Source: Klebsiella phage Sugarland. From it: a stretch of 64,000 nt of DNA. The first letter of the stretch is position 1, and the number at the start of each line of letters is the position of its first letter. The notes beneath the pieces are model-generated. The model saw only the letters and a program-made list of their open reading frames with translations. It was not told the DNA's origin and did no database searches. The stretch lies in sequence record NC_042093.1, one strand, 5' to 3'. Of the stretch, positions 1-12,072 are shown in pieces. Position numbers and translations under genes: made by a program.

Positions 1-93
1 GCTTAGAGGGTCGGGGGGTGGTATGGTAGTCCGATTACCCCCCTAGCTAACTATTAGTACCCTAACTATTTCGCTAGGGTACTATTAACTTTC

Positions 94-810
94 TTATGAT
101 GCGATGGCTAACGATTGAATGAATTGTTGCGGCTTAATTCCGTAGTCGCTTCTTTCTTCTTCGGTCATACCTTCCCAGCAATGAGCTAAACGCTCGCAAA
201 GATATTGATAATCATTATCATCATCCAGCGCTTCATCTATGAATGACTCACCCGCAAGGCGCACACCAATAGATAGAATGTCATTGATTGCGGTAGCGTC
301 CATCGTTTGAAGGCCAGCAGCAGCAGCAGCAGCCAACACGCCTTTATTATCGTCAATCATAGTGATAGTAGCGTTCGGATATTCAGCTTTAAGCATTTCA
401 AAATAATGCGTTTTATAGATACCGTCTTTTGCATAGTACACCTCTTTGTAATCAGCATCGCCAATATATCGGTGCAATACATCGCGGGATAGTATCTGGA
501 TATTACCACCGCGCCCCGCCCTGATACGTTGTTTCCGTAGGAAATAGTAATCGCTTTTGCTCATATAACGAGCGGTAACAACGATGTTTAATACAGTGGG
601 ATCATTAAGTGATGCCCGCATATATTCAACCAGCGGTAAAAGAGTGTCGGTCATAATTGCATCATGAACGCAAGCCTTTTCCCGGTACATGTTTAAATCT
701 AAGTTACCTTTCTCATCCATACACGGGAACACACGGGCAAAGGAATTAATAACAGTCCCGTCTAAATCCCATAACTTAATTGCCTTAATTGCCAGTTTAT
801 TAAAAGCCAT
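94..810 (-). CDS. dmp: 5'-deoxyribonucleotidase, HAD-family phosphatase (T5 dmp-like)
   Basis: N-terminal DxDGT motif (LWDLDGTV) typical of HAD hydrolases; position at the genome left end ahead of A1 as in T5. Confidence 0.7.
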   Translation of the reverse strand: MAFNKLAIKAIKLWDLDGTVINSFARVFPCMDEKGNLDLNMYREKACVHDAIMTDTLLPLVEYMRASLNDPTVLNIVVTARYMSKSDYYFLRKQRIRAGRGGNIQILSRDVLHRYIGDADYKEVYYAKDGIYKTHYFEMLKAEYPNATITMIDDNKGVLAAAAAAGLQTMDATAINDILSIGVRLAGESFIDEALDDDNDYQYLCERLAHCWEGMTEEERSDYGIKPQQFIQSLAIAS

Positions 811-879
811 TTTTCATTTCTCCGGTTTCGGGGTTGTTGGTAATCAAGCGAGCTATATTATAACTCGCTTTGTTAATTA

Positions 880-1332
880 TCAGAAGAATAAAGTTAAGGC
901 ATCGGCTAATTCAGCCGGTTTAATCCGGGTAGCCATTACCGGGACAATTGCGAGGGGCGGGGTATATTCGCTAGAAGAATAATCCATTACATCGCCTAAC
1001 AGATAAGTATCATCATAATCATTTTCGCTTACGACGATAAACATAAGGCCAGCGGCGGCGGCGTCAATCTCTACGATCTCGTAAATATCAGCTTCATAGA
1101 GAATAGAATCAGCGGCGACTAATTGCGACACAATGCCGGATTCTTTAAAATCAGCGGGGCGCGGGAGGATAGCGGCTAGAGCTTTTAAAACGGTGTCGCC
1201 GTCCACCGTGTTAACTTTCTGGTAGCTAACATGCGGGCGCCCTTCGCTATCGCGGGAAATAACAAGGCTATTTTCTACGACGTTGGACGCGGTGAAAGAT
1301 TTACGATTGTTATAGATGAAAGTAAGTTTCAT
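880..1332 (-). CDS. hypothetical pre-early protein
   Basis: 150-aa ORF with SD GGAGAAACAA upstream of ATG; same orientation as neighbours. Confidence 0.5.
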   Translation of the reverse strand: MKLTFIYNNRKSFTASNVVENSLVISRDSEGRPHVSYQKVNTVDGDTVLKALAAILPRPADFKESGIVSQLVAADSILYEADIYEIVEIDAAAAGLMFIVVSENDYDDTYLLGDVMDYSSSEYTPPLAIVPVMATRIKPAELADALTLFF

Positions 1333-1395
1333 TTGTTTCTCCAGCTTATTTATTTATGGGTTATTTATTGCCGGGGCAATTGCCCCGGCTTTTTG

Positions 1396-3078
1396 TTATG
1401 CAAAGAAAGCGCCGTCTTTAAAGTCAATCAAGGTACGTTGACCGTTTTCATAGGTGATTAGATGAGTCTGTGACCAGCTAGACGCGCCAATGTTGTAACC
1501 CATATCGAGGGAACCAGCGACGCCAGCAGTATAAACGCCGCCGTAAATGCTAGGCGTATGCGTATGGCCAGTGTTCATCTTACCGAGCTTGCGGAATCCT
1601 TTTGGATTGCCACGAGCGCCGTTAATGCCGTTGTGACCGTGGGAACCGCATTCAATGCCCGCGATTTTCATCGATTCATCCGTGGTTAGGAAGATCGCAG
1701 CAAAATCGCAGCCAGCAACATTGCGCAGGGCGTAATCTAGTACGTTAAAAGTATCGTCTTTATTTTCGATTGCCTCATAAATCGCAGCATTCAGGCGATA
1801 ATAAAGATGGCCGTTCGCCGGGTCTTGTTGAATGTTAGCTTTGCTATCATCCAGCCAGCGAGAAAGCGCCAGATCGTGATTAGACTCAACGATGACCGTT
1901 TGACTAAATTCACGTTCCATTTGCTCCAATACGCGCCCGGTATCGATCAGGTCGTCAATTACCTTGTCACGTCCGGCGGCATATTGTTTCGCAAGGAAAA
2001 CGCCACTAGCGCGGTTGTGATGGTTGCGCGACGTGAAATCATGCACATCATGCACAATCTGGTAACGAGGGCGCAGGATATCTACTAGCGCGGTTCCGCT
2101 AGGGTTATATTCCCAGCTTGCCGCCGCGACAGCGTGATCCAGCTTTTCGGCGTGAATGTCACCATATTGCAGCGCGGCAACATGCCCGGTTACTTCTTCG
2201 CCACCGTTAACAGTAAATTTATGATTAAGATCGTAAAACATCCCGCTTTCGTCCATCGTTTCAAGCTGGCGAGCAAAGAAGTTGCCGTTGTCGTCGATCT
2301 CTACCAGCAAAGCGCCGTAATTATGCAGCGCTTCGGCTTTTTGGCCCGCTTTTTGCTGAATATAATTTTTCAGCGTCGCTGTGCCAGTTGAATACATACG
2401 GCGCACAATGTCGCCCTTCATTGCCGGGACACTTTCAGCGGTGATTTTAGCGTGACCAATAGCCAGCCCTTTCAGGCCGTAGGCGGTCGCAGTCTCGCCA
2501 AAGCCGGACAGCGGAAAATCAGCAGTAGGCAGAATGTTAATTTCCGCCATGAATGCGAATCCTGTTTCACGGCTGCCCAAAAACACGTTTTCATTACAAA
2601 TGAAATCTGAGAAAGCATCATCATATTTCAGATCATCGTTGCCTTGCCCATTCTGGAAGCCTTTTTTGTTGTAGGCATATTTGCTAACCAGCAGGGTTGC
2701 GCCGAGGTATTTCGCGGCCTCCTGTAAGGTTTTCCAGAAGTTAGCATGAGGGAAGGTATTATTCTGAATCGACGTTAACAGAAAACGCTTACCCGGAATT
2801 ACCTTCCAGCTTTCGACGCTGGAATTAAGCTGACCAGCGGCAACGGGGCGGGAATCTTCCACCGCAACACGTTGAGCACGCTTTTCGGCAGCAGGTTTAA
2901 CAGGCTTGTTACTATCCAGCCAATCACAAATTTCGCTGGAATGTTTCGCCGTCCCGTAATGCTCTTTGCTCAATTCGTCGCAGATCTCCAGCTTTTTAGC
3001 GCGCAGACGTTTACCCCAAAAATTGAGGTTAGTTGCAGCGGTTAAAATAGCTTTTTGTTTCTCAATTGCAATGATCAT
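1396..3078 (-). CDS. A1: A1 pre-early protein with calcineurin-like metallophosphoesterase motifs
   Basis: 560 aa; motifs GDIHAE, ESNHD, GSHGHNG and NTGHTHTP resemble the D-x-H/GD/GNHD/GH/GHxH phosphoesterase signature; SD CTGGAGAA; size and position match T5 A1. Confidence 0.75.
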   Translation of the reverse strand: MIIAIEKQKAILTAATNLNFWGKRLRAKKLEICDELSKEHYGTAKHSSEICDWLDSNKPVKPAAEKRAQRVAVEDSRPVAAGQLNSSVESWKVIPGKRFLLTSIQNNTFPHANFWKTLQEAAKYLGATLLVSKYAYNKKGFQNGQGNDDLKYDDAFSDFICNENVFLGSRETGFAFMAEINILPTADFPLSGFGETATAYGLKGLAIGHAKITAESVPAMKGDIVRRMYSTGTATLKNYIQQKAGQKAEALHNYGALLVEIDDNGNFFARQLETMDESGMFYDLNHKFTVNGGEEVTGHVAALQYGDIHAEKLDHAVAAASWEYNPSGTALVDILRPRYQIVHDVHDFTSRNHHNRASGVFLAKQYAAGRDKVIDDLIDTGRVLEQMEREFSQTVIVESNHDLALSRWLDDSKANIQQDPANGHLYYRLNAAIYEAIENKDDTFNVLDYALRNVAGCDFAAIFLTTDESMKIAGIECGSHGHNGINGARGNPKGFRKLGKMNTGHTHTPSIYGGVYTAGVAGSLDMGYNIGASSWSQTHLITYENGQRTLIDFKDGAFFA

Positions 3079-3161
3079 TATTTAAATTCTCCAGTTAATG
3101 GGATATAGGCAAAATTGCCAAATATAACGCCGTGTTGCTAGTGGCGTTATAATTTGCGACT

Positions 3162-3389
3162 TTAAACTATTGCGGGAATAATACTAGCTGATATTCCAAA
3201 AGCTACGGCTAGAATAATAAAGATTATTGACCAGCGGCGGCAAATATTCGCTTTCTTAAACCAGAAATCACGGCGGAATAAATCCATTTGTTCACTGCCT
3301 ATTTCCATGAAATTATAGTATCCATAGAGACAAGCGGCGGCGAAAAAGCCAGCGATAAGAATTAAGGATTCAGTAGGGAAAAAGATCAT
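3162..3389 (-). CDS. small membrane protein (2 TM)
   Basis: 75 aa with two hydrophobic stretches; ATGA overlap with upstream ORF. Confidence 0.45.
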   Translation of the reverse strand: MIFFPTESLILIAGFFAAACLYGYYNFMEIGSEQMDLFRRDFWFKKANICRRWSIIFIILAVAFGISASIIPAIV

Positions 3390-3655
3390 TTTACAACCTC
3401 CTTTTCTTCTACGCTGAAAGCGTAATTAAGAAGGTAAATTTCGCGGGAAGATAATTCCAACATTTCCGGCTTAAATACTTCGCGGTTAATAGCCATCCCG
3501 AAAGTATCCGCGTCAGGGTTAACCCACAAAACAATATATTCAGGTACTTTGACGCTGGGAGGCGTCATTACGGCGGCATCTTGATAACCCGTTTGGATTA
3601 ATTCATCCACAACAGTTCCCGTTAATTTAATAACGGCACCTTTAATCAAAGCCAT
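3386..3655 (-). CDS. hypothetical protein
   Basis: 89-aa ORF with SD AACTGGAGAAATAAA-ATG. Confidence 0.5.
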   Translation of the reverse strand: MALIKGAVIKLTGTVVDELIQTGYQDAAVMTPPSVKVPEYIVLWVNPDADTFGMAINREVFKPEMLELSSREIYLLNYAFSVEEKEVVK

Positions 3656-3721
3656 TTTATTTCTCCAGTTATGGGGGACAAAATATTTAATTATGCGCCC
3701 CGCTAGGGAGGCGCATTATAA

Positions 3722-4126
3722 TTATTCTGCCGACTCTTTTACTTCATCCTGAACGCCAACCATACGGGCGATAACGTCCAGTTGGTCGAGCTTCATTTGT
3801 TCCAAACTTGCCAGGCCGTCGGCATCTTCGATCAGGCCGTCGGCAATAGCGTGCTGAGTGAGAACGCGCACATAGTGAGCTTTACGCAGGGAGGAACCGC
3901 CGCCGACTTTGCGCGGCTTATCGGACTTCTGATAAACCTTTGCGCTAACCAGTTTAGAACGCACTTTAACATGCGATTCAGCACCGACAGCCTTTGCAAT
4001 ATCGATAAGACCTTGCGAGTTAGCCACCTCCAGACCTTCGGCAGCAATAATACCTTCATACATAGAAATCGCAGTTGCGGCGTTTGTTTCGTTCCATGCA
4101 AATTTTTCGGTTTTAGTAGCAGTCAT
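3722..4126 (-). CDS. A2: A2-like pre-early protein
   Basis: 134 aa, basic central region, SD AACTGGAGAT; position downstream of A1 as in T5. Confidence 0.5.
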   Translation of the reverse strand: MTATKTEKFAWNETNAATAISMYEGIIAAEGLEVANSQGLIDIAKAVGAESHVKVRSKLVSAKVYQKSDKPRKVGGGSSLRKAHYVRVLTQHAIADGLIEDADGLASLEQMKLDQLDVIARMVGVQDEVKESAE

Positions 4127-4464
4127 GATATATCTCCAGTTTTATTTAAGGGGTTAGGCCAGAAAGTTAGCCGCTATATATTCTAGCTAGAATATATAAC
4201 GAAAACTCTTTATTTTAGTTTTCAATTTAAAGCTATTTAAAGCGGCATTGTATATATACGCTGCCTTTAATAATTACGCTATTACGTCTATTTCACGCTA
4301 TAGATTCGTGTTAACTCACGATTGCCGTTCAAAGCATGATATAAGTTCCAGCACATAAGTTTAATTTGCGCACCATAACATAGCTTGCGCTGCATGGGAT
4401 ATACATCGGAAGTCTAACATAGGGGAAGCATCCCATTATTTACCGGGGTTAAACTTATTGGCTA

Positions 4465-4725
4465 TTAAGCGACAGCCAACCATTTATCATCTTTGCGAAT
4501 GACTTTCACCACGTCGCCGGAATCTACCCGGACGCTGTAAATCCTCGCGTCGCTGTTTTTTGCTTTTTCCGTTTCGGCGTAAACCGCATTAATTTTATCA
4601 AATGGGATCATCGCCGCCCCTTTGATATATCCGATTTTTTCATTTTCGCCCGGCTTACTTACGTCGCCAGTAACGAAAGGAATAAAAACGGAATCACCGA
4701 TCATTGGGGTTTTAACGTTTTGCAT
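4465..4725 (-). CDS. hypothetical protein
   Basis: 86 aa, SD AACTGGAGTAAG. Confidence 0.5.
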   Translation of the reverse strand: MQNVKTPMIGDSVFIPFVTGDVSKPGENEKIGYIKGAAMIPFDKINAVYAETEKAKNSDARIYSVRVDSGDVVKVIRKDDKWLAVA

Positions 4726-4891
4726 GTTTCTTACTCCAGTTTAGTTTATTGGGTTATCCGGTTAACACTCTGATATTTTAGAGTGTTAACAGAAAACTCA
4801 ATTACCCTTACTGAGAGAATCGACTTTTCCAAATTTTTAAAGAGCGGTGTTGCTTATTGAGATTCTATAATAAAGCGTTATCGGCAGATTG

Positions 4892-5080
4892 TCAAACGTT
4901 ATTTTGTAAAGATTTTAGATAACGCATCATGTTATCCCAAATCATCGGCAAGCCTTGCTGGCCTCCGCGCTGGTAAGAACGGTAACGCCGCGCCATATCG
5001 CGCTGCATTTTGACCAATTCCGAGCTTGCCATTTTGTTCAATTTTGCTGCCGGTTTAGATGATATTACAAAGCGTTTCAT
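4892..5080 (-). CDS. small basic hypothetical protein
   Basis: 62-aa ORF. Confidence 0.35.
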   Translation of the reverse strand: MKRFVISSKPAAKLNKMASSELVKMQRDMARRYRSYQRGGQQGLPMIWDNMMRYLKSLQNNV

Positions 5081-5095
5081 GTTGTCAACCTTTAA

Positions 5096-5263
5096 TTAGT
5101 GGAGTGTATGATTTCGTTTAGTTTGCATAATGATTTGACCGTCTCTATGGATGAAGGCTAAATCTACGTCGTACACTTCTTTATAAGTCTTAATGAAGTA
5201 TTCAGCGTCTGCTACTGTGAACTCGTTTACAATCTCGCTACTCATTACGTTTTCTTTTAACAT
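5096..5263 (-). CDS. small hypothetical protein (55 aa)
   Basis: ORF MLKENVMSSEIVNEF... below the 60-aa track cutoff. Confidence 0.25.
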   Translation of the reverse strand: MLKENVMSSEIVNEFTVADAEYFIKTYKEVYDVDLAFIHRDGQIIMQTKRNHTLH

Positions 5264-5690
5264 GTTTTCGGTTCCCTTATAAAGTAAAGAAGCCGATAAC
5301 GCTTTTTATAGAATCCCAAATTTTTAAAGAGCAGTGTAGGGCGGGGGCAGACTATACTTGTTTCGGCCTTTCCGTTCGGGGTAGTCGGGGCTATGTTACC
5401 GCCTCCTGATACCTGACTACTAGTGAAACGCTTTCGTGTTTCCCGTTTCGTCTTGCCGCCCTACGAGATAAATAATAACACAATGACGTTTAGCCGCAAG
5501 CGCAGAATTGTAAAGAAGTGTAAAGAGAAAACAGGCCCACGATAGATAGGAAGCGCGCGCGCACGTGACACAATATTTAAAGAAAGTCAACGAATATTTT
5601 TACTATTTTTCTTCAAAAGGGGTTGACAAAATCTATTTCACACGAGGTGAGGAGATCGCCTCATACCCGGTATGATTCATCGGCTTTTAT

Positions 5691-5720
5691 CTAAAACCGC
5701 TTAGAATCGATTCTAAGCGG
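5691..5720. repeat. 30-bp perfect palindrome AAACCGCTTAGAATC/GATTCTAAGCGGTTT
   Basis: read directly; flanked by T/A runs; bidirectional terminator-like or protein-binding site. Confidence 0.6.
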
Positions 5721-5859
5721 TTTTAGACCCTGTTAATAACTTATACAAAAAGCAAAAATGAAATTTAATTAGTTATCCACTAGACAAATGATTATTTTTA
5801 TGAAAACGCAAAATAATGCTTGCGTTTATTTTATGCTGTACTCCTGTTTTCCGGGCAAG

Positions 5860-5868
5860 TTATCCACA
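5860..5868 (+). promoter_or_regulatory. DnaA box TTATCCACA (exact consensus)
   Basis: exact 9-mer. Confidence 0.6.
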
Positions 5869-5920
5869 GCACAAAATAACTTGACAAGCTGAGAAGCGGT
5901 ATAACGAGATATCCCCAGAC

Positions 5921-5956
5921 TTATCCACAGGTTATCCTACTGTATATTTATACAGT
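5921..5956. repeat. left arm of long-range inverted repeat carrying DnaA box TTATCCACA plus GTTATCCTA and an 18-bp palindrome ACTGTATATTTATACAGT
   Basis: reverse complement matches 9872-9919 apart from a 10-bp insertion. Confidence 0.65.
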
Positions 5957-6069
5957 ATATTCCAGCAGCGGTAATACTCTAATATACCCCTAGAACGCTC
6001 TATAACGCATTCTGAGCGCTTTAAATTTAGAGGCCATATTAAAGGCCATTGCTAGAGGGGCGCAGAAAA

Positions 6070-6110
6070 ACAAAAAGCCCGCTCATTATAAGCAGGCTTT
6101 TAATTCGTTT
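6070..6110 (-). terminator. intrinsic terminator (minus strand)
   Basis: on the minus strand, stem AGCCTGCT/AGCGGGCT followed by TTTTTGTTTTTCTG; downstream of gene 6116..6358. Confidence 0.5.
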
Positions 6111-6115
6111 GCTAA

Positions 6116-6358
6116 CTATTCCGTATAGGTAATGTTATCATGGTCAGTAAATGAAAACGGCGTTTCATCCGTACTCCATTCATCCCATAATTTAGCAGAC
6201 TCATGATTTCGCAGTTTAGCAATAGCAGGCATAATACTAGCTTGCTCATTATTAACAATAGGCGCGGCTAACTTTGCATACTCCTCCGGGGTTAATTCCA
6301 CCTCATAGGTGAGATTAGTAACCCTTTGCGTACTAACTAATACACGTATCTTTTCCAT
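6116..6358 (-). CDS. hypothetical protein
   Basis: 80-aa ORF. Confidence 0.45.
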   Translation of the reverse strand: MEKIRVLVSTQRVTNLTYEVELTPEEYAKLAAPIVNNEQASIMPAIAKLRNHESAKLWDEWSTDETPFSFTDHDNITYTE

Positions 6359-6705
6359 TATCGGAATACCGTTTCAATTGTTTCGCCGCTAGAGCATACC
6401 GACCCGCCGCGATAAAACAGGCGTTCGGTTTTATATTTGGTTAGCAGATCATAGAGATCCAGATCATCGGAAAGCGGGTAAGACTCCCCCAGCGCGGAAA
6501 CGGAAACAGGTTTACCCTCTACCAGATCACGGCAAATTAGAATCAGCAAAGGCCAACTAATATTGATAGCATCGCCTCGCAATCCGATTTTAAGTGTAGC
6601 CACTTCATCAATATGCCTTGCATTCTGGCGGCTAACATATTGGATCACGGTCTCCATCGTTTTATAGTGAGCCAGAAAATATTTGTTGACATAGATGTAA
6701 ATCAT
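6358..6705 (-). CDS. hypothetical protein
   Basis: 115-aa ORF, start overlaps upstream stop. Confidence 0.45.
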   Translation of the reverse strand: MIYIYVNKYFLAHYKTMETVIQYVSRQNARHIDEVATLKIGLRGDAINISWPLLILICRDLVEGKPVSVSALGESYPLSDDLDLYDLLTKYKTERLFYRGGSVCSSGETIETVFR

Positions 6706-7238
6706 AGGTATACGACCCCGCTAACCTTCCAACCGGATTTTAAACCTTCCTCAATATGAAGGATAGTTTCAGCATCCGGGATATAGATAAACGTTTTCAA
6801 TTCGCGCAGATTAATAACTGCCTTTCCGTCAGCTATCTGGATGTAACCCAAATAGATTGCCCGCTCTAGAACGGAATGAAGGGGCGAACCACCATTAACG
6901 AGGTTGCAGGAATGACCGGGCCAGTACATATAAAACGACCCTTCTACCCCAGCATTACAGTATTTTTCGTCGTCGTCTTCTTCCCAATCATCCTCGCCTA
7001 ACATACTTTCGGCATGTTCGCAAGCCTTTTCCCAGGAAAGGGAATCGACGTCAATTCCACGACCTAAAAAATGAAGGTCAGTCCAGCCAGTACCGCAAAC
7101 GTTAGTATCACATTTGAGGACGGCGGCGACTTCCTGAGACTCAATTCGCCCGCCCTCTAAATATAAACCTTCTTCCGCTTCTACCGTACAATTAATGCCC
7201 GGTACGCAAGATTTCATATGAAACATGGTTTTCTCCAA
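6702..7238 (-). CDS. hypothetical Cys-rich protein
   Basis: 178 aa, SD GGAGAAAACC. Confidence 0.5.
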   Translation of the reverse strand: MEKTMFHMKSCVPGINCTVEAEEGLYLEGGRIESQEVAAVLKCDTNVCGTGWTDLHFLGRGIDVDSLSWEKACEHAESMLGEDDWEEDDDEKYCNAGVEGSFYMYWPGHSCNLVNGGSPLHSVLERAIYLGYIQIADGKAVINLRELKTFIYIPDAETILHIEEGLKSGWKVSGVVYL

Positions 7239-7279
7239 TAATGGGGGCGGCTAGAGATTCAGCCGCCGGGAAGGGGATT

Positions 7280-7774
7280 TTACAGCTTATCGCGGAAAGT
7301 ATCAAGCCGGTTGTTTAGCTCTTTAATCGCGTCGGCATGGATTTCGTCATACGTTGACACGATATCCGCCAGCTCATCCATAGTTAGCGAACTAACAATA
7401 ACGGACGTTTTCACCTCCAGCTTTTCCGGTTCCGGTTCCGCTGGTGGCGTATCCAAAAACGTTAGCGAGCCTAAATTAATTAGGAATACTTCGATTTCGG
7501 TAGCGCCGGATTCGCAGTCTATTTCAAAACTGCTATCCCCAATACAGATATCAAAGCCATAGCCATATACCCCGATAATCCGCAAGGGGATTCCCAGCAT
7601 ATCGTCGGTGTCCGGGTAGCAGTCCCGGCGGTCAATCTGGCGGGCCAGATTATCCAAGTTTTTTGGCTCGATGAAAATAGCAAAATTGCCACGATCACCA
7701 TTCTGGCGCAGGCGCTGCCATACATTAGCGATCGTCATCTTTTCGCCTTCGAAAGTAGCGGTTAGCCGTTCCAT
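7280..7774 (-). CDS. hypothetical acidic protein
   Basis: 164 aa, SD AACTGGAGAATGTT. Confidence 0.5.
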   Translation of the reverse strand: MERLTATFEGEKMTIANVWQRLRQNGDRGNFAIFIEPKNLDNLARQIDRRDCYPDTDDMLGIPLRIIGVYGYGFDICIGDSSFEIDCESGATEIEVFLINLGSLTFLDTPPAEPEPEKLEVKTSVIVSSLTMDELADIVSTYDEIHADAIKELNNRLDTFRDKL

Positions 7775-7839
7775 AACATTCTCCAGTTAGTTAGCAGGGT
7801 AATTATTATAGCGCCCCATTATAGAGGCGCTAAATATAA

Positions 7840-8805
7840 TTATTCTGCTACGTCGTTTTCAATCAGGCTAGAAAGATTGACGCCTTTTAATACCTCGTCA
7901 ATCATTTCGCCGACGTTGAAACTTTGTACCAGTTCCAACATGGCGGCTTGCATTGCAGCGTCAGCCGCAATCACCGCTTTGCGGTTGTTCGGCGCATACT
8001 GGCTAACCGCAAAATTCAGCAGGTTAGCAATTACCACACGGCCTACCGCCGTGTCAACATAACCGCGAACCATAAACGGCGCTTTGCTGGCGGCGATGCC
8101 GGAAACTTTTTTCAGGACGATAGAACCAGCTTCCAGTTTAGCGGCGTTTACAGCAGCGTTTTTGTTAGCGGCAACGATAGCGGTAGCAGTAGATTTGATA
8201 GTATTCATTTGTAAAACTCCAGATTCAAAAGTGTTAGGGGTAACTGCATTTTCAGTAACAGCCGGGGCAACATCTTCCAGCTCGCCATCATAACGATAAT
8301 TTCCAGTCCTTGCCCCTTCTTCGATATCAATATCGTAGAAGTTACATGGTAACAGGATACTCCCGTCCTTGTCAAGCACAAAAATCATCATTTCGCTAGA
8401 AATGCGTGCTGGTGGTAGTTCCAGATGATCACAAAGATTTTTAATCCATGCGCGGGCATCAGTGAAAGCGAGCAGTTCGCTTTCATGGTAGCAAAAACGT
8501 CTCGACGCTTGCTTACCCTCGGACGCTTTATACAAATAAGCGTCCGAAGTAGTAGACACTATCAGATCAATAGGCTGGCTGTCAACCAAATATTGATCAT
8601 CGTGATAAATAACAATCGCCGCTCCGGGGGTGGCTAGAGCGTAGTCACGGCAATGCTCAAAGGCATAGCCGGATCTACTTTCCATATTTGCGCGATAAAC
8701 GGCCAAAATATGACCAATAGAGGCGCACTTACTGCCATCTAACAGGTTGCGAGCGCCACCGCGAACCATCGGCAAATTAGCAACGGGGGTAAACTTCTGT
8801 AACAT
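7840..8805 (-). CDS. hypothetical protein
   Basis: 321 aa; SD AAGGAG; preceded by PN25-like promoter. Confidence 0.55.
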   Translation of the reverse strand: MLQKFTPVANLPMVRGGARNLLDGSKCASIGHILAVYRANMESRSGYAFEHCRDYALATPGAAIVIYHDDQYLVDSQPIDLIVSTTSDAYLYKASEGKQASRRFCYHESELLAFTDARAWIKNLCDHLELPPARISSEMMIFVLDKDGSILLPCNFYDIDIEEGARTGNYRYDGELEDVAPAVTENAVTPNTFESGVLQMNTIKSTATAIVAANKNAAVNAAKLEAGSIVLKKVSGIAASKAPFMVRGYVDTAVGRVVIANLLNFAVSQYAPNNRKAVIAADAAMQAAMLELVQSFNVGEMIDEVLKGVNLSSLIENDVAE

Positions 8806-8837
8806 TTTCTGTTACTCCTTTGTTTGGCTGAGAATCT

Positions 8838-8867
8838 ATTATAGCAAGATTCCCAGCTTTTTAGCAA
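8838..8867 (-). promoter_or_regulatory. sigma70 promoter TTGCTA-18-TATAAT with TATAATAGATTC downstream context
   Basis: hexamers read on the minus strand; T5 early-promoter architecture. Confidence 0.55.
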
Positions 8868-8877
8868 GTATTATTTT

Positions 8878-9216
8878 CTAGAAACAGATGCCACGGCCCC
8901 GGCCTACCTCATCCCGATTTTCATCGAAAATGATCACATTGGCATCAAACGTGCTACGGCTAACGATCATTTGAATGCCATCCTTCCCCGGTTCTGGTTC
9001 CACCATAAATCCCCATGTACCGGAATCGACTGTTACAGAATCAAAATCCTGATTCCGTAACAATGCCGTAACAGTTCCCTCTTTTGCAAAGGTTACAGAA
9101 ACACGGCACTCAATAGGCCGAACCTTTTCAGGGGTAACGATAGCCGGGGCGCTAACCTCCGCAAGGGCAGCACCGGAAAGCATAGCAAGGCCAAAGCCAA
9201 TAACGGCAAGTTTCAT
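8878..9216 (-). CDS. secreted/periplasmic small protein
   Basis: start chosen at MKLAVIGFGLAMLSGAALA (signal peptide) with SD CTGGAGAATGTT; track ORF extends 15 codons upstream. Confidence 0.45.
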   Translation of the reverse strand: MKLAVIGFGLAMLSGAALAEVSAPAIVTPEKVRPIECRVSVTFAKEGTVTALLRNQDFDSVTVDSGTWGFMVEPEPGKDGIQMIVSRSTFDANVIIFDENRDEVGRGRGICF

Positions 9217-9303
9217 AACATTCTCCAGTTTTAGGGGTTGTTCCCGTTTGAGAGATTGCATTATGCAGGAATCAGATCTGACTGTCTACCACTAAAAATA
9301 GTA

Positions 9304-9331
9304 GTTGCTTCCTGCTAGAGTTATGGTATTA
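9304..9331 (+). promoter_or_regulatory. candidate sigma70 promoter TTGCTT-16-TATTAT
   Basis: upstream of three-peptide operon. Confidence 0.35.
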
Positions 9332-9360
9332 TTATGACTCTAGACAAAGGAGATCGAAAA

Positions 9361-9474
9361 ATGACTTTTTCAATGTTGGCGCTCGGTTTAGTCGGTTCTA
9401 TGATGGTTTTGGGCTTTATCGCTTTTTGCGGGTATGCCCTTTATGACGTATTATTTAATAAGGAGGCTTTTTAA
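9361..9474 (+). CDS. tiny hydrophobic peptide 1 (37 aa)
   Basis: SD AAAGGAGATCG; MTFSMLALGLVGSMMVLGFIAFCGYALYDV...; TAATG coupling to next ORF. Confidence 0.4.
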   Translation: MTFSMLALGLVGSMMVLGFIAFCGYALYDVLFNKEAF

Positions 9475-9638
9475 TGAGAACTTTGCGCGGTGGTAGCCCC
9501 AAAAGCCGTAGCCACAATACTTACCAATTGAACGTTATTCGTGATGGTCAGAAGAAAGGCGGTGGCGGCGGTGAGTGGGGTTTTCGTGTCATCATGGTTA
9601 TTATTATGACCCTAATCTTTTTGCAGAGTTGCCAATAA
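9474..9638 (+). CDS. tiny peptide 2 (54 aa), basic N-terminus, Gly-run and C-terminal TM
   Basis: SD AAGGAGG; TAATG overlaps on both sides. Confidence 0.4.
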   Translation: MRTLRGGSPKSRSHNTYQLNVIRDGQKKGGGGGEWGFRVIMVIIMTLIFLQSCQ

Positions 9639-9748
9639 TGAGCGGCCTAATGTTTTTGGGCGTGATAGTTATTAGCGCAATCATTACCCTGGTAATAGTT
9701 TCAGTTGTAAACCATTTTTGGCCTGAGTGTTTCCACGGCGATATGTAG
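9638..9748 (+). CDS. tiny hydrophobic peptide 3 (36 aa)
   Basis: MSGLMFLGVIVISAIITLVIVSVVNHFW...; translationally coupled. Confidence 0.35.
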   Translation: MSGLMFLGVIVISAIITLVIVSVVNHFWPECFHGDM

Positions 9749-9871
9749 GAATGTCGCCGCCCTCCTCCACCGCGTGACCCCTTACTAAAATACCTCCACG
9801 AAAATTAAATCGCTTAGAACGCTTCCTAGACCCCTTAAAATCGACATTAGTAGAAAGTGTTGCTGGGAAAT

Positions 9872-9919
9872 ACTGTATAAATATACAGTAGGATAACCTG
9901 TTAATAAGTCTGTGGATAA
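9872..9919. repeat. right arm of inverted repeat with DnaA box TGTGGATAA and palindrome ACTGTATAAATATACAGT
   Basis: mirror of 5921-5956; further DnaA-like GGGGATAAC at 9973. Confidence 0.65.
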
Positions 9920-10012
9920 CTCGTCTGCGACCTTCTCAAGCGTCAATCTAATTTACAATTTTGTATAACTCTGGGGATAACTTAAATGGTAGTGTTTCTC
10001 ACTTCCTTTTAG

Positions 10013-10108
10013 AAATGCGAATCATTCTCATTCGCATTCAGCTTATCAAACGAGAATAATTATCATTCGCATTCAACTTCTCAAATGCGAATCATTCTCA
10101 TTCGTATT
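10013..10108. repeat. three copies of hairpin repeat AATGCGAATCATTCTCATTCGCATT (9-bp arms, 7-nt loop)
   Basis: copies at about 10013, 10052 (partial) and 10083. Confidence 0.6.
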
Positions 10109-10140
10109 TGCATTTCCGACCCCCGGCCCTTCCTGCGCTT

Positions 10141-10710
10141 ATGTGCGAATCCGACAATTTGTCAAGCAAAATATTACGTGAGGCTGCTAGGGTATGTGCA
10201 AATCCGATGAAAATTTATTTTTACCGCCCTGGGGGCATGTGCAAATCCGACACTAATATGTGCGTATCCGACAATAATTTTTAGGGGGAAGGCGCGCAGT
10301 TTGCTGCGGCGCAGCGGTGGGCGCGAGTCTGGGTGAGTATGTGCAAATCCGACGGGTATTTTTGGAGGAGGGATAAACGGGGTTAATTGGGGCAATTCGG
10401 GGATGATGGGGGCAGGGGGCAGATAAGGGAAAATATTATGAGTTAAATGGGGGTAAAGGGGTTGACACAGAAAAAATTCCTGTGGCTCTAAAAAACAAGC
10501 GAACTCACGGTGACACACCGTGTAAAAAGGCTTGAAATTTCAGGAGATATTTTATATTCGCAGAATCGAAGATTTTGATCCACAGCTACCGTTTGCTAGT
10601 ATATATGTGCATATCCGATAGTAGTTTTTATATGTGCATATCCGATAGTAGTTTTTATATGTGCATATCCGACATAGCTAGAGGTTAGTGCAAATCCGAT
10701 GATATTTTGT
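10141..10710. repeat. array of about 10 direct repeats with core ATGTGC(A/G)(A/T)ATCCGA(C/T)
   Basis: copies at 10141, 10195, 10238, 10258, 10339, 10604, 10631, 10658 and 10688; variable spacers; no credible ORF. Confidence 0.65.
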
Positions 10711-10714
10711 GACG

Positions 10715-10870
10715 CTTAGAACTTAGGCGAATGACGTGAGTTTGTGTGGGAACTTCGTGAGGACTTTGTGGAGTGACGCTTAGGACTTGGGAAGCTAGCG
10801 TTTTAATATGGGGATGTGTGAGGACTTCGTGGAATATGTGAAATGGCGTGGAACTTTGTGCAATTCTAGA
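10715..10870. repeat. degenerate direct repeats GACGCTTAG(A/G)ACTT and GGAACTTCGTGAGGACTTTGTGGAG
   Basis: 2-3 copies each, read directly. Confidence 0.5.
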
Positions 10871-11244
10871 AAAAGGCTTTCCGAAAAAGTGAGTTGGAAA
10901 ATAACCGCCCTCCCCTTAGGTGTATGGAAAGAACCGCCCTGTATAGAAAGATGACTAGAGTTCAACCCTAGAGCCGCGAAACGATGGTGTGTAAGGATTA
11001 CCTACTTTTAAACGTGAGTAATCGTGAGTTCATTCCCACGTTTCCTTTGTTTTCTTTATTGTGTCTTTTATTTTAGTTATAGATCCCCCTATTTCTCCCG
11101 ATGTAGCCGTGCTAGGCATCGCAGATTGTATCGTATGGCTGGTCACTCTTTGTACTCGCTTCGGAACTCCGCGCTACTAAAGTTAGCCATGATAATCTGT
11201 GCCTAGCTACATAAATTTATGAATTGTATGTAATCTATGAGATT

Positions 11245-11274
11245 ATTATAACACGGGCATAAAATAACTGTCAA
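11245..11274 (-). promoter_or_regulatory. near-consensus sigma70 promoter TTGACA-18-TATAAT pointing leftward into the ORF-free repeat region
   Basis: minus strand TTGACAGTTATTTTATGCCCGTGTTATAAT. Confidence 0.5.
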
Positions 11275-11290
11275 GAACATTTTGTAAGAG

Positions 11291-11328
11291 TTTGAAAAAG
11301 TGACAGGGACTTGGCGAGAGTCCCTGTG
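11291..11328 (-). terminator. intrinsic terminator
   Basis: minus strand ACAGGGACTCTCGCCAAGTCCCTGT then CACTTTTTC. Confidence 0.55.
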
Positions 11329-11334
11329 ATTAGC

Positions 11335-12072
11335 TTAGAGTTGATCTTTCCTTATGAATCTACCTTGGCTTAACATTGCGATATACAATGCTTCCGGGGA
11401 AGTCTCTAGGTGGTCTAACTCTTTAATGTCGAACGAACCTTTTGGTAACTCGCCAGGCTCGTCATGATCATATAAATACTCGACAGCATCTCCTAGCATG
11501 AGAGCATTCCCGATCTTCTTGATCTTTGAATATCTCTCTTTTACTAATGCTATTAACGCTAAATCCTCTTTGGTAAGGTTTAACTGCCTAGAGAGTTTTA
11601 CTGTCGTCTTCGTTATCTGTACAGCAATATCCAGAACTGAGGCTTGGTAATCTTTCCAGTCCTCAACCTTTTGAGCATCCCGTTGAAGATGTGGAAAATC
11701 GATATAGTCCTGGCATTTTCCATCAGGAATATGGTAACTGGGGAAGTCTTCCACTGCCTGCTGCCACGTAACTGTCTTCACCTTATCATGCGGATATGGC
11801 TCATCCATTATAACGTGGAAGGAGTTAACCATGAACTTCTTCTCAGTAACCGGATACATCTTGTGAACTTTATTCAAGTCCACGTAACCAGGAGCTAACG
11901 TTGTTTTCTTAGCATCCTTAGAATAAACAGGCTTGCCATTCTTCATCTCCGCTGGTCTTAGCTCTCCGGCTATTAGCACAGCGGATTTTTCTTCAAATGT
12001 TAGCTCTGAGAAGTTTTTACCTTTGGACTCCTTGGCTAGGGTGAATATAACCTTCAGCTTCTCTAGATTCAT
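11335..12072 (-). CDS. hypothetical protein
   Basis: 245-aa ORF. Confidence 0.5.
   Translation of the reverse strand: MNLEKLKVIFTLAKESKGKNFSELTFEEKSAVLIAGELRPAEMKNGKPVYSKDAKKTTLAPGYVDLNKVHKMYPVTEKKFMVNSFHVIMDEPYPHDKVKTVTWQQAVEDFPSYHIPDGKCQDYIDFPHLQRDAQKVEDWKDYQASVLDIAVQITKTTVKLSRQLNLTKEDLALIALVKERYSKIKKIGNALMLGDAVEYLYDHDEPGELPKGSFDIKELDHLETSPEALYIAMLSQGRFIRKDQL

Follow-up and report, generated by a model that had tools for sequence, protein, structure and literature searches.

DnaA-box arrays and predicted LexA operators in the inverted repeats within the first-step-transfer region of Klebsiella phage Sugarland

The halt of bacteriophage T5 DNA after 8% entry and the restart of its transfer by A1 and A2 have been an open question for more than 50 years. 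As the halt occurs without protein synthesis (Davison 2020, bioRxiv 10.1101/866236), factors that exist in the cell before infection are indicated. The same study named two inverted copies of a repeat in the T5-like phages, IRC-spacer-IRD on the left and IRD'-spacer-IRC' on the right, credited the DnaA boxes within them to a report of 1987, and reported for almost all of 25 T5-like phages a fixed arrangement of eight boxes, DnaA or DnaA-like, with a spacer of constant length (52 bp) and a highly divergent coding region between the repeats. Membrane-bound DnaA on these boxes was proposed to halt injection. Some lineages are devoid of the left copy (IRC and IRD), and the phages of 'Type 3', among them vB_Kpn_IME260 and Sugarland, 'lack part of IRC' and transcribe the coding region from the opposite strand (Davison 2020). 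In the T5 annotation (AY587007), the inverted repeats C (6022-6060) and D (6112-6152) face D' (9332-9372) and C' (9424-9462), and a 'palindrome D' is placed at 9330-9349. Here, the corresponding repeats, referred to as left and right arm, are analysed in a 64,000-nucleotide stretch from Klebsiella phage Sugarland (NC_042093.1; "the window"), where each arm joins an array of DnaA boxes to a palindrome that closely resembles the LexA operator of the SOS response.

The genomic setting of the arms can be derived from related phages. A megablast search with positions 5600-10200 matched 416 phage records, headed by Klebsiella phage Torridgeon (coverage 100%, identity 98.3%), and IME260 (Demerecviridae, Sugarlandvirus) matches at nearly identical coordinates (5600-9967). 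By their positions in the IME260 annotation, the window's open reading frames (ORFs) at 94-810, 1396-3078 and 3722-4126 are dmp, A1 and A2, the A2 protein being 99% identical to that of IME260 and 66% identical to that of T5. A repeat_region annotated at 1-10277 of IME260, its terminal repeat of 10,277 bp, spans the positions of both arms; the terminal-repeat boundary of the window is transferred from this annotation. Because the dmp, A1 and A2 genes and the terminal repeat of IME260 coincide with the window in this way, the start of the window is, on these annotations, the left end of a T5-like Klebsiella phage genome (Sugarlandvirus), and both arms are placed in the first-step-transfer (FST) region, to the right of dmp-A1-A2 and within the long terminal repeat of the Demerecviridae. 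A preliminary description of this DNA, made from its sequence alone, had already assigned the arms to such a region; dmp, A1 and A2 on their left and the fit of the coordinates to the 10.3-kb repeat of IME260 bear this out.

Both arms align with the T5 repeats (T5 6010-6165 and 9320-9475), and a four-way alignment contains the invariant blocks CAGACTTAT, CAGGTTAT and CTGTATA..TATACAG. Window positions 9869-10061 match T5 9328-9520 at 77% identity (blastn, E=3e-34), IME260 carries the arms at the same coordinates inside its terminal repeat, and the right arm finds matches in 534 phage records, a degree of conservation that speaks against a chance arrangement. It is thus virtually certain from these alignments that the arms are the T5-family IRC-spacer-IRD (left) and IRD'-spacer-IRC' (right). 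Since Davison (2020) described the same structure for the same genus, the arms and their DnaA boxes as first noted in the preliminary description are a rediscovery; the role in injection arrest that it suggested had likewise been proposed in the literature, a publication that it had missed. The arms, the DnaA boxes and the idea of injection arrest are therefore known already, and what is added here is the match of 'palindrome D' to the LexA operator, the analysis of how the intervening segment is inverted, and the evidence that the left arm appears to be dispensable.

The core of the inverted repeat comprises 64 nt with 91% complementarity (5904-5967 and 9861-9924, separated by 3893 nt), the runner-up pair in the region being 28 nt long with 75% complementarity. 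An outer pair of boxes (5857-5869 and 9971-9983) stretches each arm to about 110-125 nt, and both arms are non-coding. The inverted repeat of about 40 bp initially reported is hence real but longer, and the exact DnaA boxes at 5860, 5921 and 9911 were recovered, with all box coordinates correct to within 1-2 nt. These three sites, two on the plus strand (5860, 5921) and one on the minus strand (9911), are the only exact copies of TTATCCACA in the window, and all fall within the arms, compared to 0.54 expected from shuffled sequences; these matches to TTATNCACA exceed chance and are clustered. Because boxes with one mismatch are not enriched genome-wide (19 versus 14.4), the signal resides in clustering and conservation. 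In the left arm, one outer box (5860) is followed by a spacer containing TTGACA and then by three boxes (5909, 5921 and 5932); the right arm is the mirror image but has two outer boxes (9960-9968 and 9972-9980). The tandem boxes of each arm are phased by 11-12 bp from start to start, and all boxes point inward. A direct repeat of 18 bp, AGTTATCCAC(T/A), has its two copies at 5771-5788 and 5858-5875 and thereby places an additional one-mismatch DnaA box, TTATCCACT, at 5773, 87 bp left of this arm and beside a hairpin (5804-5827); a perfect 38-bp palindrome composed of TCTAAAACCGCTTAGAATC and GATTCTAAGCGGTTTTAGA occupies 5690-5727.

At the inner, module-facing end of each arm lies a palindrome of 20 bp, which had been noticed in both arms but given as 18 bp long, and whose match to the SOS-box consensus, TACTGTATATATATACAGTA (PMC3009722), had been missed. 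A scan of the window for CTGT-N8-ACAG returns two sites only, 5938-5957 and 9871-9890. When scored with a symmetric position weight matrix (PWM) built from 18 UV-induced SOS boxes of E. coli (PMC3009722, Table 4), each of them reaches 27.87 bits, compared to 13.0-26.6 bits for the training boxes themselves and 10.5 bits for the next site in the window. In both arms, the LexA-like box is located 17-18 bp from a consensus DnaA box.

To follow the palindrome through the family, relatives were sampled via the A2 protein and not via the motif, which yielded 30 distinct loci. Scores of the right-arm box are 23.8 bits or higher throughout the 30 loci, with 27.9 bits in 25, and those of the left-arm box are 17.9-27.9 bits. 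The variants encountered (CTGG, CCAG, changes in the central N8) also occur among real E. coli SOS boxes, and the central TT/AA asymmetry switches freely from phage to phage, as a symmetric dimer reading the site would allow. Five relatives are distant, with A2 proteins 36-62% identical to that of the window (Pectobacterium phage My1, Proteus phage RP7, and the Vibrio phages Chester, ValDsh2 and 70E35-3), and in all five the sequence flanking the arm motifs has diverged. Nevertheless, the distance from a consensus DnaA box to the start of a LexA-like box (18.5-25.8 bits) is 17-30 bp in RP7, Chester, ValDsh2 and 70E35-3; My1 has LexA-like boxes (25.8 and 26.8 bits) that abut variant boxes of the TTATCAACA type, the nearest consensus DnaA box being 80-100 bp away. 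A scan of 2.9 million viral contigs for the composite pattern found 42 stretches on 23 contigs, and all 23 are among the A2-positive T5-like contigs. About 1 kb upstream of its A2 gene, RP7 also has a palindrome of the LexA type (25.8 bits) without an adjacent consensus DnaA box; of its two palindrome sites, 10971-10990 and 6785-6804, the distal one retains the composite of DnaA and LexA boxes, and its lineage is probably the type described as being without A2-proximal IRC and IRD.

The arms hence carry predicted sites for DnaA and LexA, and it is likely that both proteins would bind the arm sequences in vitro. More tentatively, the injection-stop repeats of the Demerecviridae may be composite landing pads, in which a DnaA-box array is fused at a fixed distance to a LexA operator of consensus strength, with LexA as an unrecognised component of two-step transfer; this proposal falls short of being probable. 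The identity of 'palindrome D' as a LexA operator, a prediction from its sequence, would be an addition to a known element: the text of Davison (2020) contains neither 'LexA' nor 'SOS', and no link of LexA to T5, Tequintavirus or Demerecviridae was found in the literature searched, with a mention in Heusterspreute 1987, Wang 2005 or Davison 2015 still possible.

The arms could act during transfer in the following manner: Host DnaA, the candidate of Davison, and LexA, the candidate added here, are present before infection and would load onto the arms as the DNA enters. The resulting nucleoprotein complex would help to stop the DNA or to hold it at the envelope. LexA would thus contribute to stopping or holding the first-step DNA, or it would mark the site for the action of A1 and A2, which would later overcome the complex. 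Cleavage of LexA, brought about by A1-driven degradation of host DNA and subsequent activation of RecA, was considered as an obligatory trigger of the second step and set aside, which also tells against the involvement of LexA. T5 grows on recA1 cloning strains. In A2 mutants, host DNA is degraded, yet transfer is not completed (Davison 2020), and for these two reasons LexA cleavage does not qualify as an obligatory restart signal.

Several further points weigh against a function of DnaA and LexA on the arms. Experimental studies of these sites are lacking according to a 2023 paper on BF23, and the mechanism of the transfer stop was still called poorly understood in a 2026 PNAS paper. A protein on DNA that has already entered is not obviously able to halt DNA that is still in the capsid. 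The left-arm boxes are weaker in many Tequintavirus and Epseptimavirus loci, four of which have no ACAG (17.9-20.0 bits). As most of the 30 loci belong to close relatives, their conservation partly reflects shared ancestry, and the evidence depends mostly on the five distant loci. Finally, the promoter scan detects no sigma-70-like promoter overlapping 5938-5957 or 9871-9890; the LexA-like boxes are not at promoters, and the usual reason for the conservation of SOS boxes is therefore absent. A role of the arms in the injection stop is accordingly put forward as a possibility rather than as the probable outcome.

A further argument against LexA is that a dimeric protein of the phage, itself conserved, could equally well account for a conserved palindrome as its site. 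The palindrome, and possibly the 9-mers too, would then be bound by phage proteins, chiefly by A2 as a dimeric protein that binds double-stranded DNA (dsDNA), with or without A1, and the likeness to LexA boxes would be coincidence or competitive mimicry. The restart of transfer requires A2 to act close to the stop, or to cleave there in the model of Davison; it is needed for second-step transfer, forms a dimer and binds dsDNA (Davison 2020; 2026 preprint), and a dimer suits a 20-bp palindrome. Its conservation covers those phages in which the palindrome is kept as well (890 records), and the location of the LexA-like boxes away from promoters is in line with a phage protein as well. An AlphaFold2 model of A2 (28 homologues; pLDDT 86.5) is all-helical and consists of two small helical domains and a basic linker, with weak, non-significant similarity to helix-turn-helix, Myb and winged-helix folds. 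The best match of this model in a Foldseek search against the PDB has E=0.58, and the DNA-binding domain of LexA appears at E=6.5-9.7 only, so that no significant structural relative was found; no family was found for A2 in the Pfam copy used, nor a sequence match in the PDB, and no specific A2 site is known. Since the stop takes place without phage protein synthesis, factors already present must be responsible at least for stopping. In the Vibrio and Proteus phages, whose A2 is down to 36-48% identity, CTGT/ACAG half-sites are retained, and this constancy counts against A2, because joint drift would be expected of a phage protein and its site. Moreover, the match to the host consensus exceeds that of any of the 18 E. 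coli boxes of the PWM, and the adjacent 9-mers fit the consensus of a second, unrelated host protein. Binding by A2 in place of LexA is thus considered unlikely, albeit a serious contender.

DnaA and LexA are inferred as ligands because the sites match two unrelated host consensuses at or above the quality of host sites, and because they remain unchanged despite the divergence of A2, the DNA-binding candidate of the phage. The overall explanation, the arms as T5 repeats bound by host proteins, is a compromise between steps of unequal certainty, and we regard its chances as evenly balanced.

The two arms do not seem to be of equal importance. According to a 2026 preprint, the T5 mutant ΔLΔR, in which 'hegG to 017' is deleted, is viable and forms small plaques. 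The ΔFST junction primers of this study map to T5 5360-5392 and 9082-9107, and the deletion should therefore extend over approximately 5393-9081, removing IRC-spacer-IRD (6022-6152) and keeping IRD'-spacer-IRC' (9332-9462). The loss of the left arm follows from the mapping of the primers, the repeats not being discussed by the authors of the preprint. As this mutant is viable, the left arm appears dispensable, and pairing of the arms or formation of a loop appears non-essential, which agrees with the lineages that are devoid of the left copy (Davison 2020) and argues against the looping site of the preliminary description as an obligatory element. In the proposed mechanism, the right arm would be the functional core and the left arm a second, apparently dispensable copy. 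A minor FST band of T5 near 5.8 kb (Davison 2020) coincides with the position of the left arm. The outer homology primer FST-R of the 2026 study anneals to T5 9399-9418 in the right-arm spacer, with three mismatches to AY587007; because this spacer is repeated, inverted, in the left arm, recombination designs there could be affected.

The location of the LexA-like boxes relative to transcription units invites a different interpretation, namely that the arms are transcriptional insulators or roadblocks, at which DnaA and LexA would stop RNA polymerase leaving the module before it runs into the untranslated repeat region and the DNA still in the tail, or into the A2-A1 operon; in addition, a promoter that escaped recognition might be repressed by LexA. 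Indeed, each LexA-like box is found just downstream of where a transcription unit ends, the left box past the terminator-like hairpin at 6073-6101 and the right one past an operon of small ORFs (end 9748), without a terminator-like site found between this operon and the arm, and in T5-type phages the whole module is transcribed toward the right arm. My1, however, keeps the composite despite a good terminator-like hairpin before its right arm, and roadblocks leave the precise architecture of 2+3 boxes, the constant 52-bp spacer (Davison 2020) and the placement at the stop site unexplained. As to repression, no sigma-70-like promoter overlapping the arms was found, and the nearest annotated promoters of T5 (AY587007) are more than 170 bp from the palindromes. 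A promoter built on the conserved TTGACA of the spacer was rejected, as no -10 hexamer is found at 16-18 bp from it in the window or in T5. Roadblocks are regarded as quite improbable, and the transcription control suggested in the preliminary description finds no promoter at either arm on which to act.

Replication initiation, which had also been suggested, fares worse. Several DnaA boxes in two oppositely oriented arrays superficially resemble the halves of oriC, and the clusters could serve as an origin for the FST DNA or for the whole genome. An AT-rich 13-mer of the kind found in DNA-unwinding elements (at most two mismatches to GATCTNTTNTTTT) was not found beside either arm, there is no GATC within 5655-6446 or 9353-10300, and the arrays are 3.9 kb apart. 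Furthermore, the origins of T5 are near the centre of its genome, replication genes are not present in the FST period (Davison 2020), and the left array appears dispensable. An oriC-like function was rejected, above all for the missing unwinding element and GATC sites, and it is hardly credible.

The segment between the arms has a history of its own. In all 30 loci, one arm is found on each side of an interior of 1572-4040 bp. Comparison by tblastn places homologues of g5, g3 and g2, three of the six leftward genes of the window, in this order rightward from the left arm in T5 and Epseptimavirus, and in the same order leftward in the window and in IME260. Relative to A2, these genes are on the opposite strand in the T5 and Epseptimavirus loci and on the same strand in the window and IME260, and the g5 homologue shares the strand of A2 in My1 but not in RP7. 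At the DNA level, window 7869-8179 matches T5 7397-7088 in reverse, while the sequences outside the arms are collinear. These differences in orientation imply at least one arm-bounded inversion within the family. The segment is, on this comparative evidence, a variable accessory cassette that is inverted with respect to T5, so that the defined cassette surmised in the preliminary description holds in an evolutionary sense. The inverted arrangement of the arms would render the segment invertible and prone to swapping over evolutionary time, and since the interior would be invertible, pre-early accessory genes can be read oppositely in different genera.

Conceivably, this is all there is to the arms: remnants of an inverted duplication that act as recombination substrates, mediating inversion or exchange of the cassette, with motifs devoid of a binding function. 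The variable size and content of the interior, its inversion between lineages, the deletion of the left arm in a viable T5 mutant and the lineages without IRC and IRD (Davison 2020) would all be accommodated. Recombination needs homology and not motifs, yet in four Vibrio and Proteus relatives only the DnaA/LexA composite survives while the rest cannot be aligned. The right-arm box is at or near consensus in 30 of 30 loci, and the phasing of the boxes and their distance to the LexA-like box are preserved. That the arms serve recombination only is accordingly very improbable.

The arms were initially described as flanking six leftward genes (6116-9216), which is correct but omits three small rightward ORFs (9361-9748) that are divergent from the six-gene operon (Table 1). 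The product of g5 (321 residues, DUF7566) corresponds to T5 ORF011 and ORF012 fused in frame, residues 10-229 resembling ORF011 and residues 226-321 ORF012; its conservation in My1 and RP7 is limited to the C-terminal ~110 residues. Homologues of g3 and g2 are found in T5-type loci; g1, g4, g6 and the three small ORFs have matches only in IME260 among the loci examined. DUF7566 is the only Pfam hit among the module genes, and their PHROGs families are all of unknown function; the middle small ORF (54 residues) has a PHROG family of its own. The products of the first and third small ORFs (37 and 36 residues) are almost wholly hydrophobic and look like single-pass membrane peptides, and the N-terminus of g6, MKLAVIGFGLAMLSGAALA-EVS, looks like a signal peptide when judged by eye. 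Two labels in the IME260 annotation, 'restriction endonuclease subunit R' (60 residues; IME260 6119-6301, window ~6116-6358) and 'S9 family peptidase' (112 residues; IME260 8639-8977, window ~8878-9216), are without Pfam support and look like annotation artefacts. A search of 4400-11400 against Rfam gave no family at gathering score and three sub-threshold matches, all on the hairpin at 6073-6101. T5 can do without genes 011-017, of which gene 011 has a toxic effect in E. coli, with disorganisation of the nucleoid (2026 preprint).

Table 1. Features in and around the two arms (window coordinates)
Feature	Coordinates	Strand	Remarks
Left arm	5857..5967	+	Homologue of T5 IRC-spacer-IRD (Repeat Region 2); core 5904-5967
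Consensus DnaA box TTATCCACA, IRC part	5860..5868	+	Exact-match scan
TTGACA hexamer in spacer	5881..5886	+	Kept in almost all 60 aligned arms; without usable -10 partner
DnaA-like box ATATCCCCA	5909..5917	+	Two mismatches; sequence and alignment
Consensus DnaA box TTATCCACA, IRD part	5921..5929	+	Starts 17 bp ahead of the start of the LexA-like box
DnaA-like box TTATCCTAC	5932..5940	+	Overlaps the LexA-like box by 3 bp
Near-consensus LexA (SOS) box TACTGTATATTTATACAGTA	5938..5957	.	19/20 of TACTGTATATATATACAGTA; 27.87 bits; counterpart of T5 'palindrome D'
Intrinsic-terminator-like hairpin	6073..6101	-	End of leftward operon; terminator scan
Six leftward pre-early accessory genes	6116..9216	-	g1 6116-6358, g2 6358-6705, g3 6702-7226, g4 7280-7774, g5 7840-8805, g6 8878-9216
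Promoter-like site TAGACA-17-CATAAT	9260..9288	-	Leftward operon; inside divergent control region 9217-9360
Three small rightward ORFs	9361..9748	+	37, 54 and 36 residues; conserved in IME260
Right arm	9861..9983	-	Homologue of T5 IRD'-spacer-IRC' (Repeat Region 3, proposed injection-stop signal); core 9861-9924
Near-consensus LexA box TACTGTATAAATATACAGTA	9871..9890	.	19/20 of TACTGTATATATATACAGTA; 27.87 bits
Three tandem DnaA-type boxes	9888..9919	-	TTATCCTAC 9888-9896, TTATTAACA 9899-9907, consensus TTATCCACA 9911-9919
Outer (IRC') DnaA-like box pair	9960..9980	-	TTATACAAA 9960-9968, TTATCCCCA 9972-9980
Three 35-bp tandem repeats	10013..10117	+	Internal palindromes AATGCGAATCATTCTCATTCGCATT; match T5 DRC / palindrome E-H block, just right of the arm
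CCTGCGC	10132..10138	+	Matches T5 annotated 'major single-stranded nick 1, 7.9%' (T5 9661-9668)
Eight copies of TGTGCRWATCCGA	10142..10672	+	Match T5 direct repeat D; nowhere else in the window

The right arm is directly followed by repeats that match the direct repeats C and D (DRC and DRD) of T5, and CCTGCGC immediately precedes the first DRD-like repeat, as in T5; by this correspondence, the probable FST boundary or nick site is CCTGCGC at 10132, at a distance of about 150 bp to the right of this arm. A perfect tandem duplication of 27 bp lies at 10602-10655 within the DRD-like repeats. A recurring motif of the TTCTAAGCG/CGCTTAGAA type occupies the inner flanks of both arms (5990-6025 and 9807-9835) and returns to the right of the DRD repeats (10709-10727 and 10773-10791). 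Its inner-flank copy (…CTAAAACGC.TTCTAACG) is conserved in nearly all of 60 aligned arms, and the conserved repeat thus reaches past the part with the DnaA and LexA boxes; the motif may be the counterpart of the inverted repeat B/B' of T5.

The match to the LexA operator, the inversion of the cassette and the apparent dispensability of the left arm together allow direct tests of the old question of the transfer stop. With LexA, a further host protein becomes a candidate, its sites are defined precisely enough for mutation, and lexA(Def) hosts can be had; because a viable engineered T5 apparently does without the left arm, work can focus on the right arm. If LexA does take part, a strictly lytic phage would be using the SOS repressor in an unusual way, apart from prophage induction or promoter control.

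Among known systems, the repeats of T5 are closest. They share with the arms of the window homologous sequence, the layout of the DnaA boxes, 'palindrome D' and a variable coding segment between the arms, as well as the position in the terminal repeat, to the right of dmp-A1-A2 and to the left of DRC/DRD and the 7.9% nick motif. The window differs in that its left arm is without part of IRC, as already described for Type 3, in that both palindromes match the LexA consensus at 19 of 20 positions while the left copy of T5 is weaker (20.7 bits), and in that its module is inverted and contains the extra genes g1, g4 and g6 and the three small ORFs. With the SOS boxes of gammaproteobacteria, including those of colicin plasmids and temperate phages, the palindromes have in common the 20-bp CTGT-N8-ACAG structure with TA flanks and an AT-rich centre, a score above all 18 E. 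coli boxes of the PWM, and natural variants that real boxes tolerate. In contrast to these, the arm boxes, as predicted from sequence, have no recognisable promoter overlap or evident regulated gene, they are joined to an array of DnaA boxes, and the phage that carries them is virulent and destroys the DNA of its host. The DnaA clusters of oriC, datA and DARS resemble the arms in that consensus boxes flank weaker ones with a phasing of 11-12 bp and in one orientation, two such arrays facing each other; they differ from the arms, which have no DNA-unwinding element or GATC cluster, whose arrays are 3.9 kb apart, and whose proposed role would be arrest or anchoring of entering DNA, not initiation or titration of DnaA. 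A more general parallel exists to the leading regions of conjugative plasmids and to the RNA-polymerase-driven entry of T7, where the first DNA to enter carries genes for host takeover or anti-defence along with cis elements used by host proteins. There, the machinery is a different one and no sequence relationship exists; the discrete pause signal is specific to the T5-like phages.

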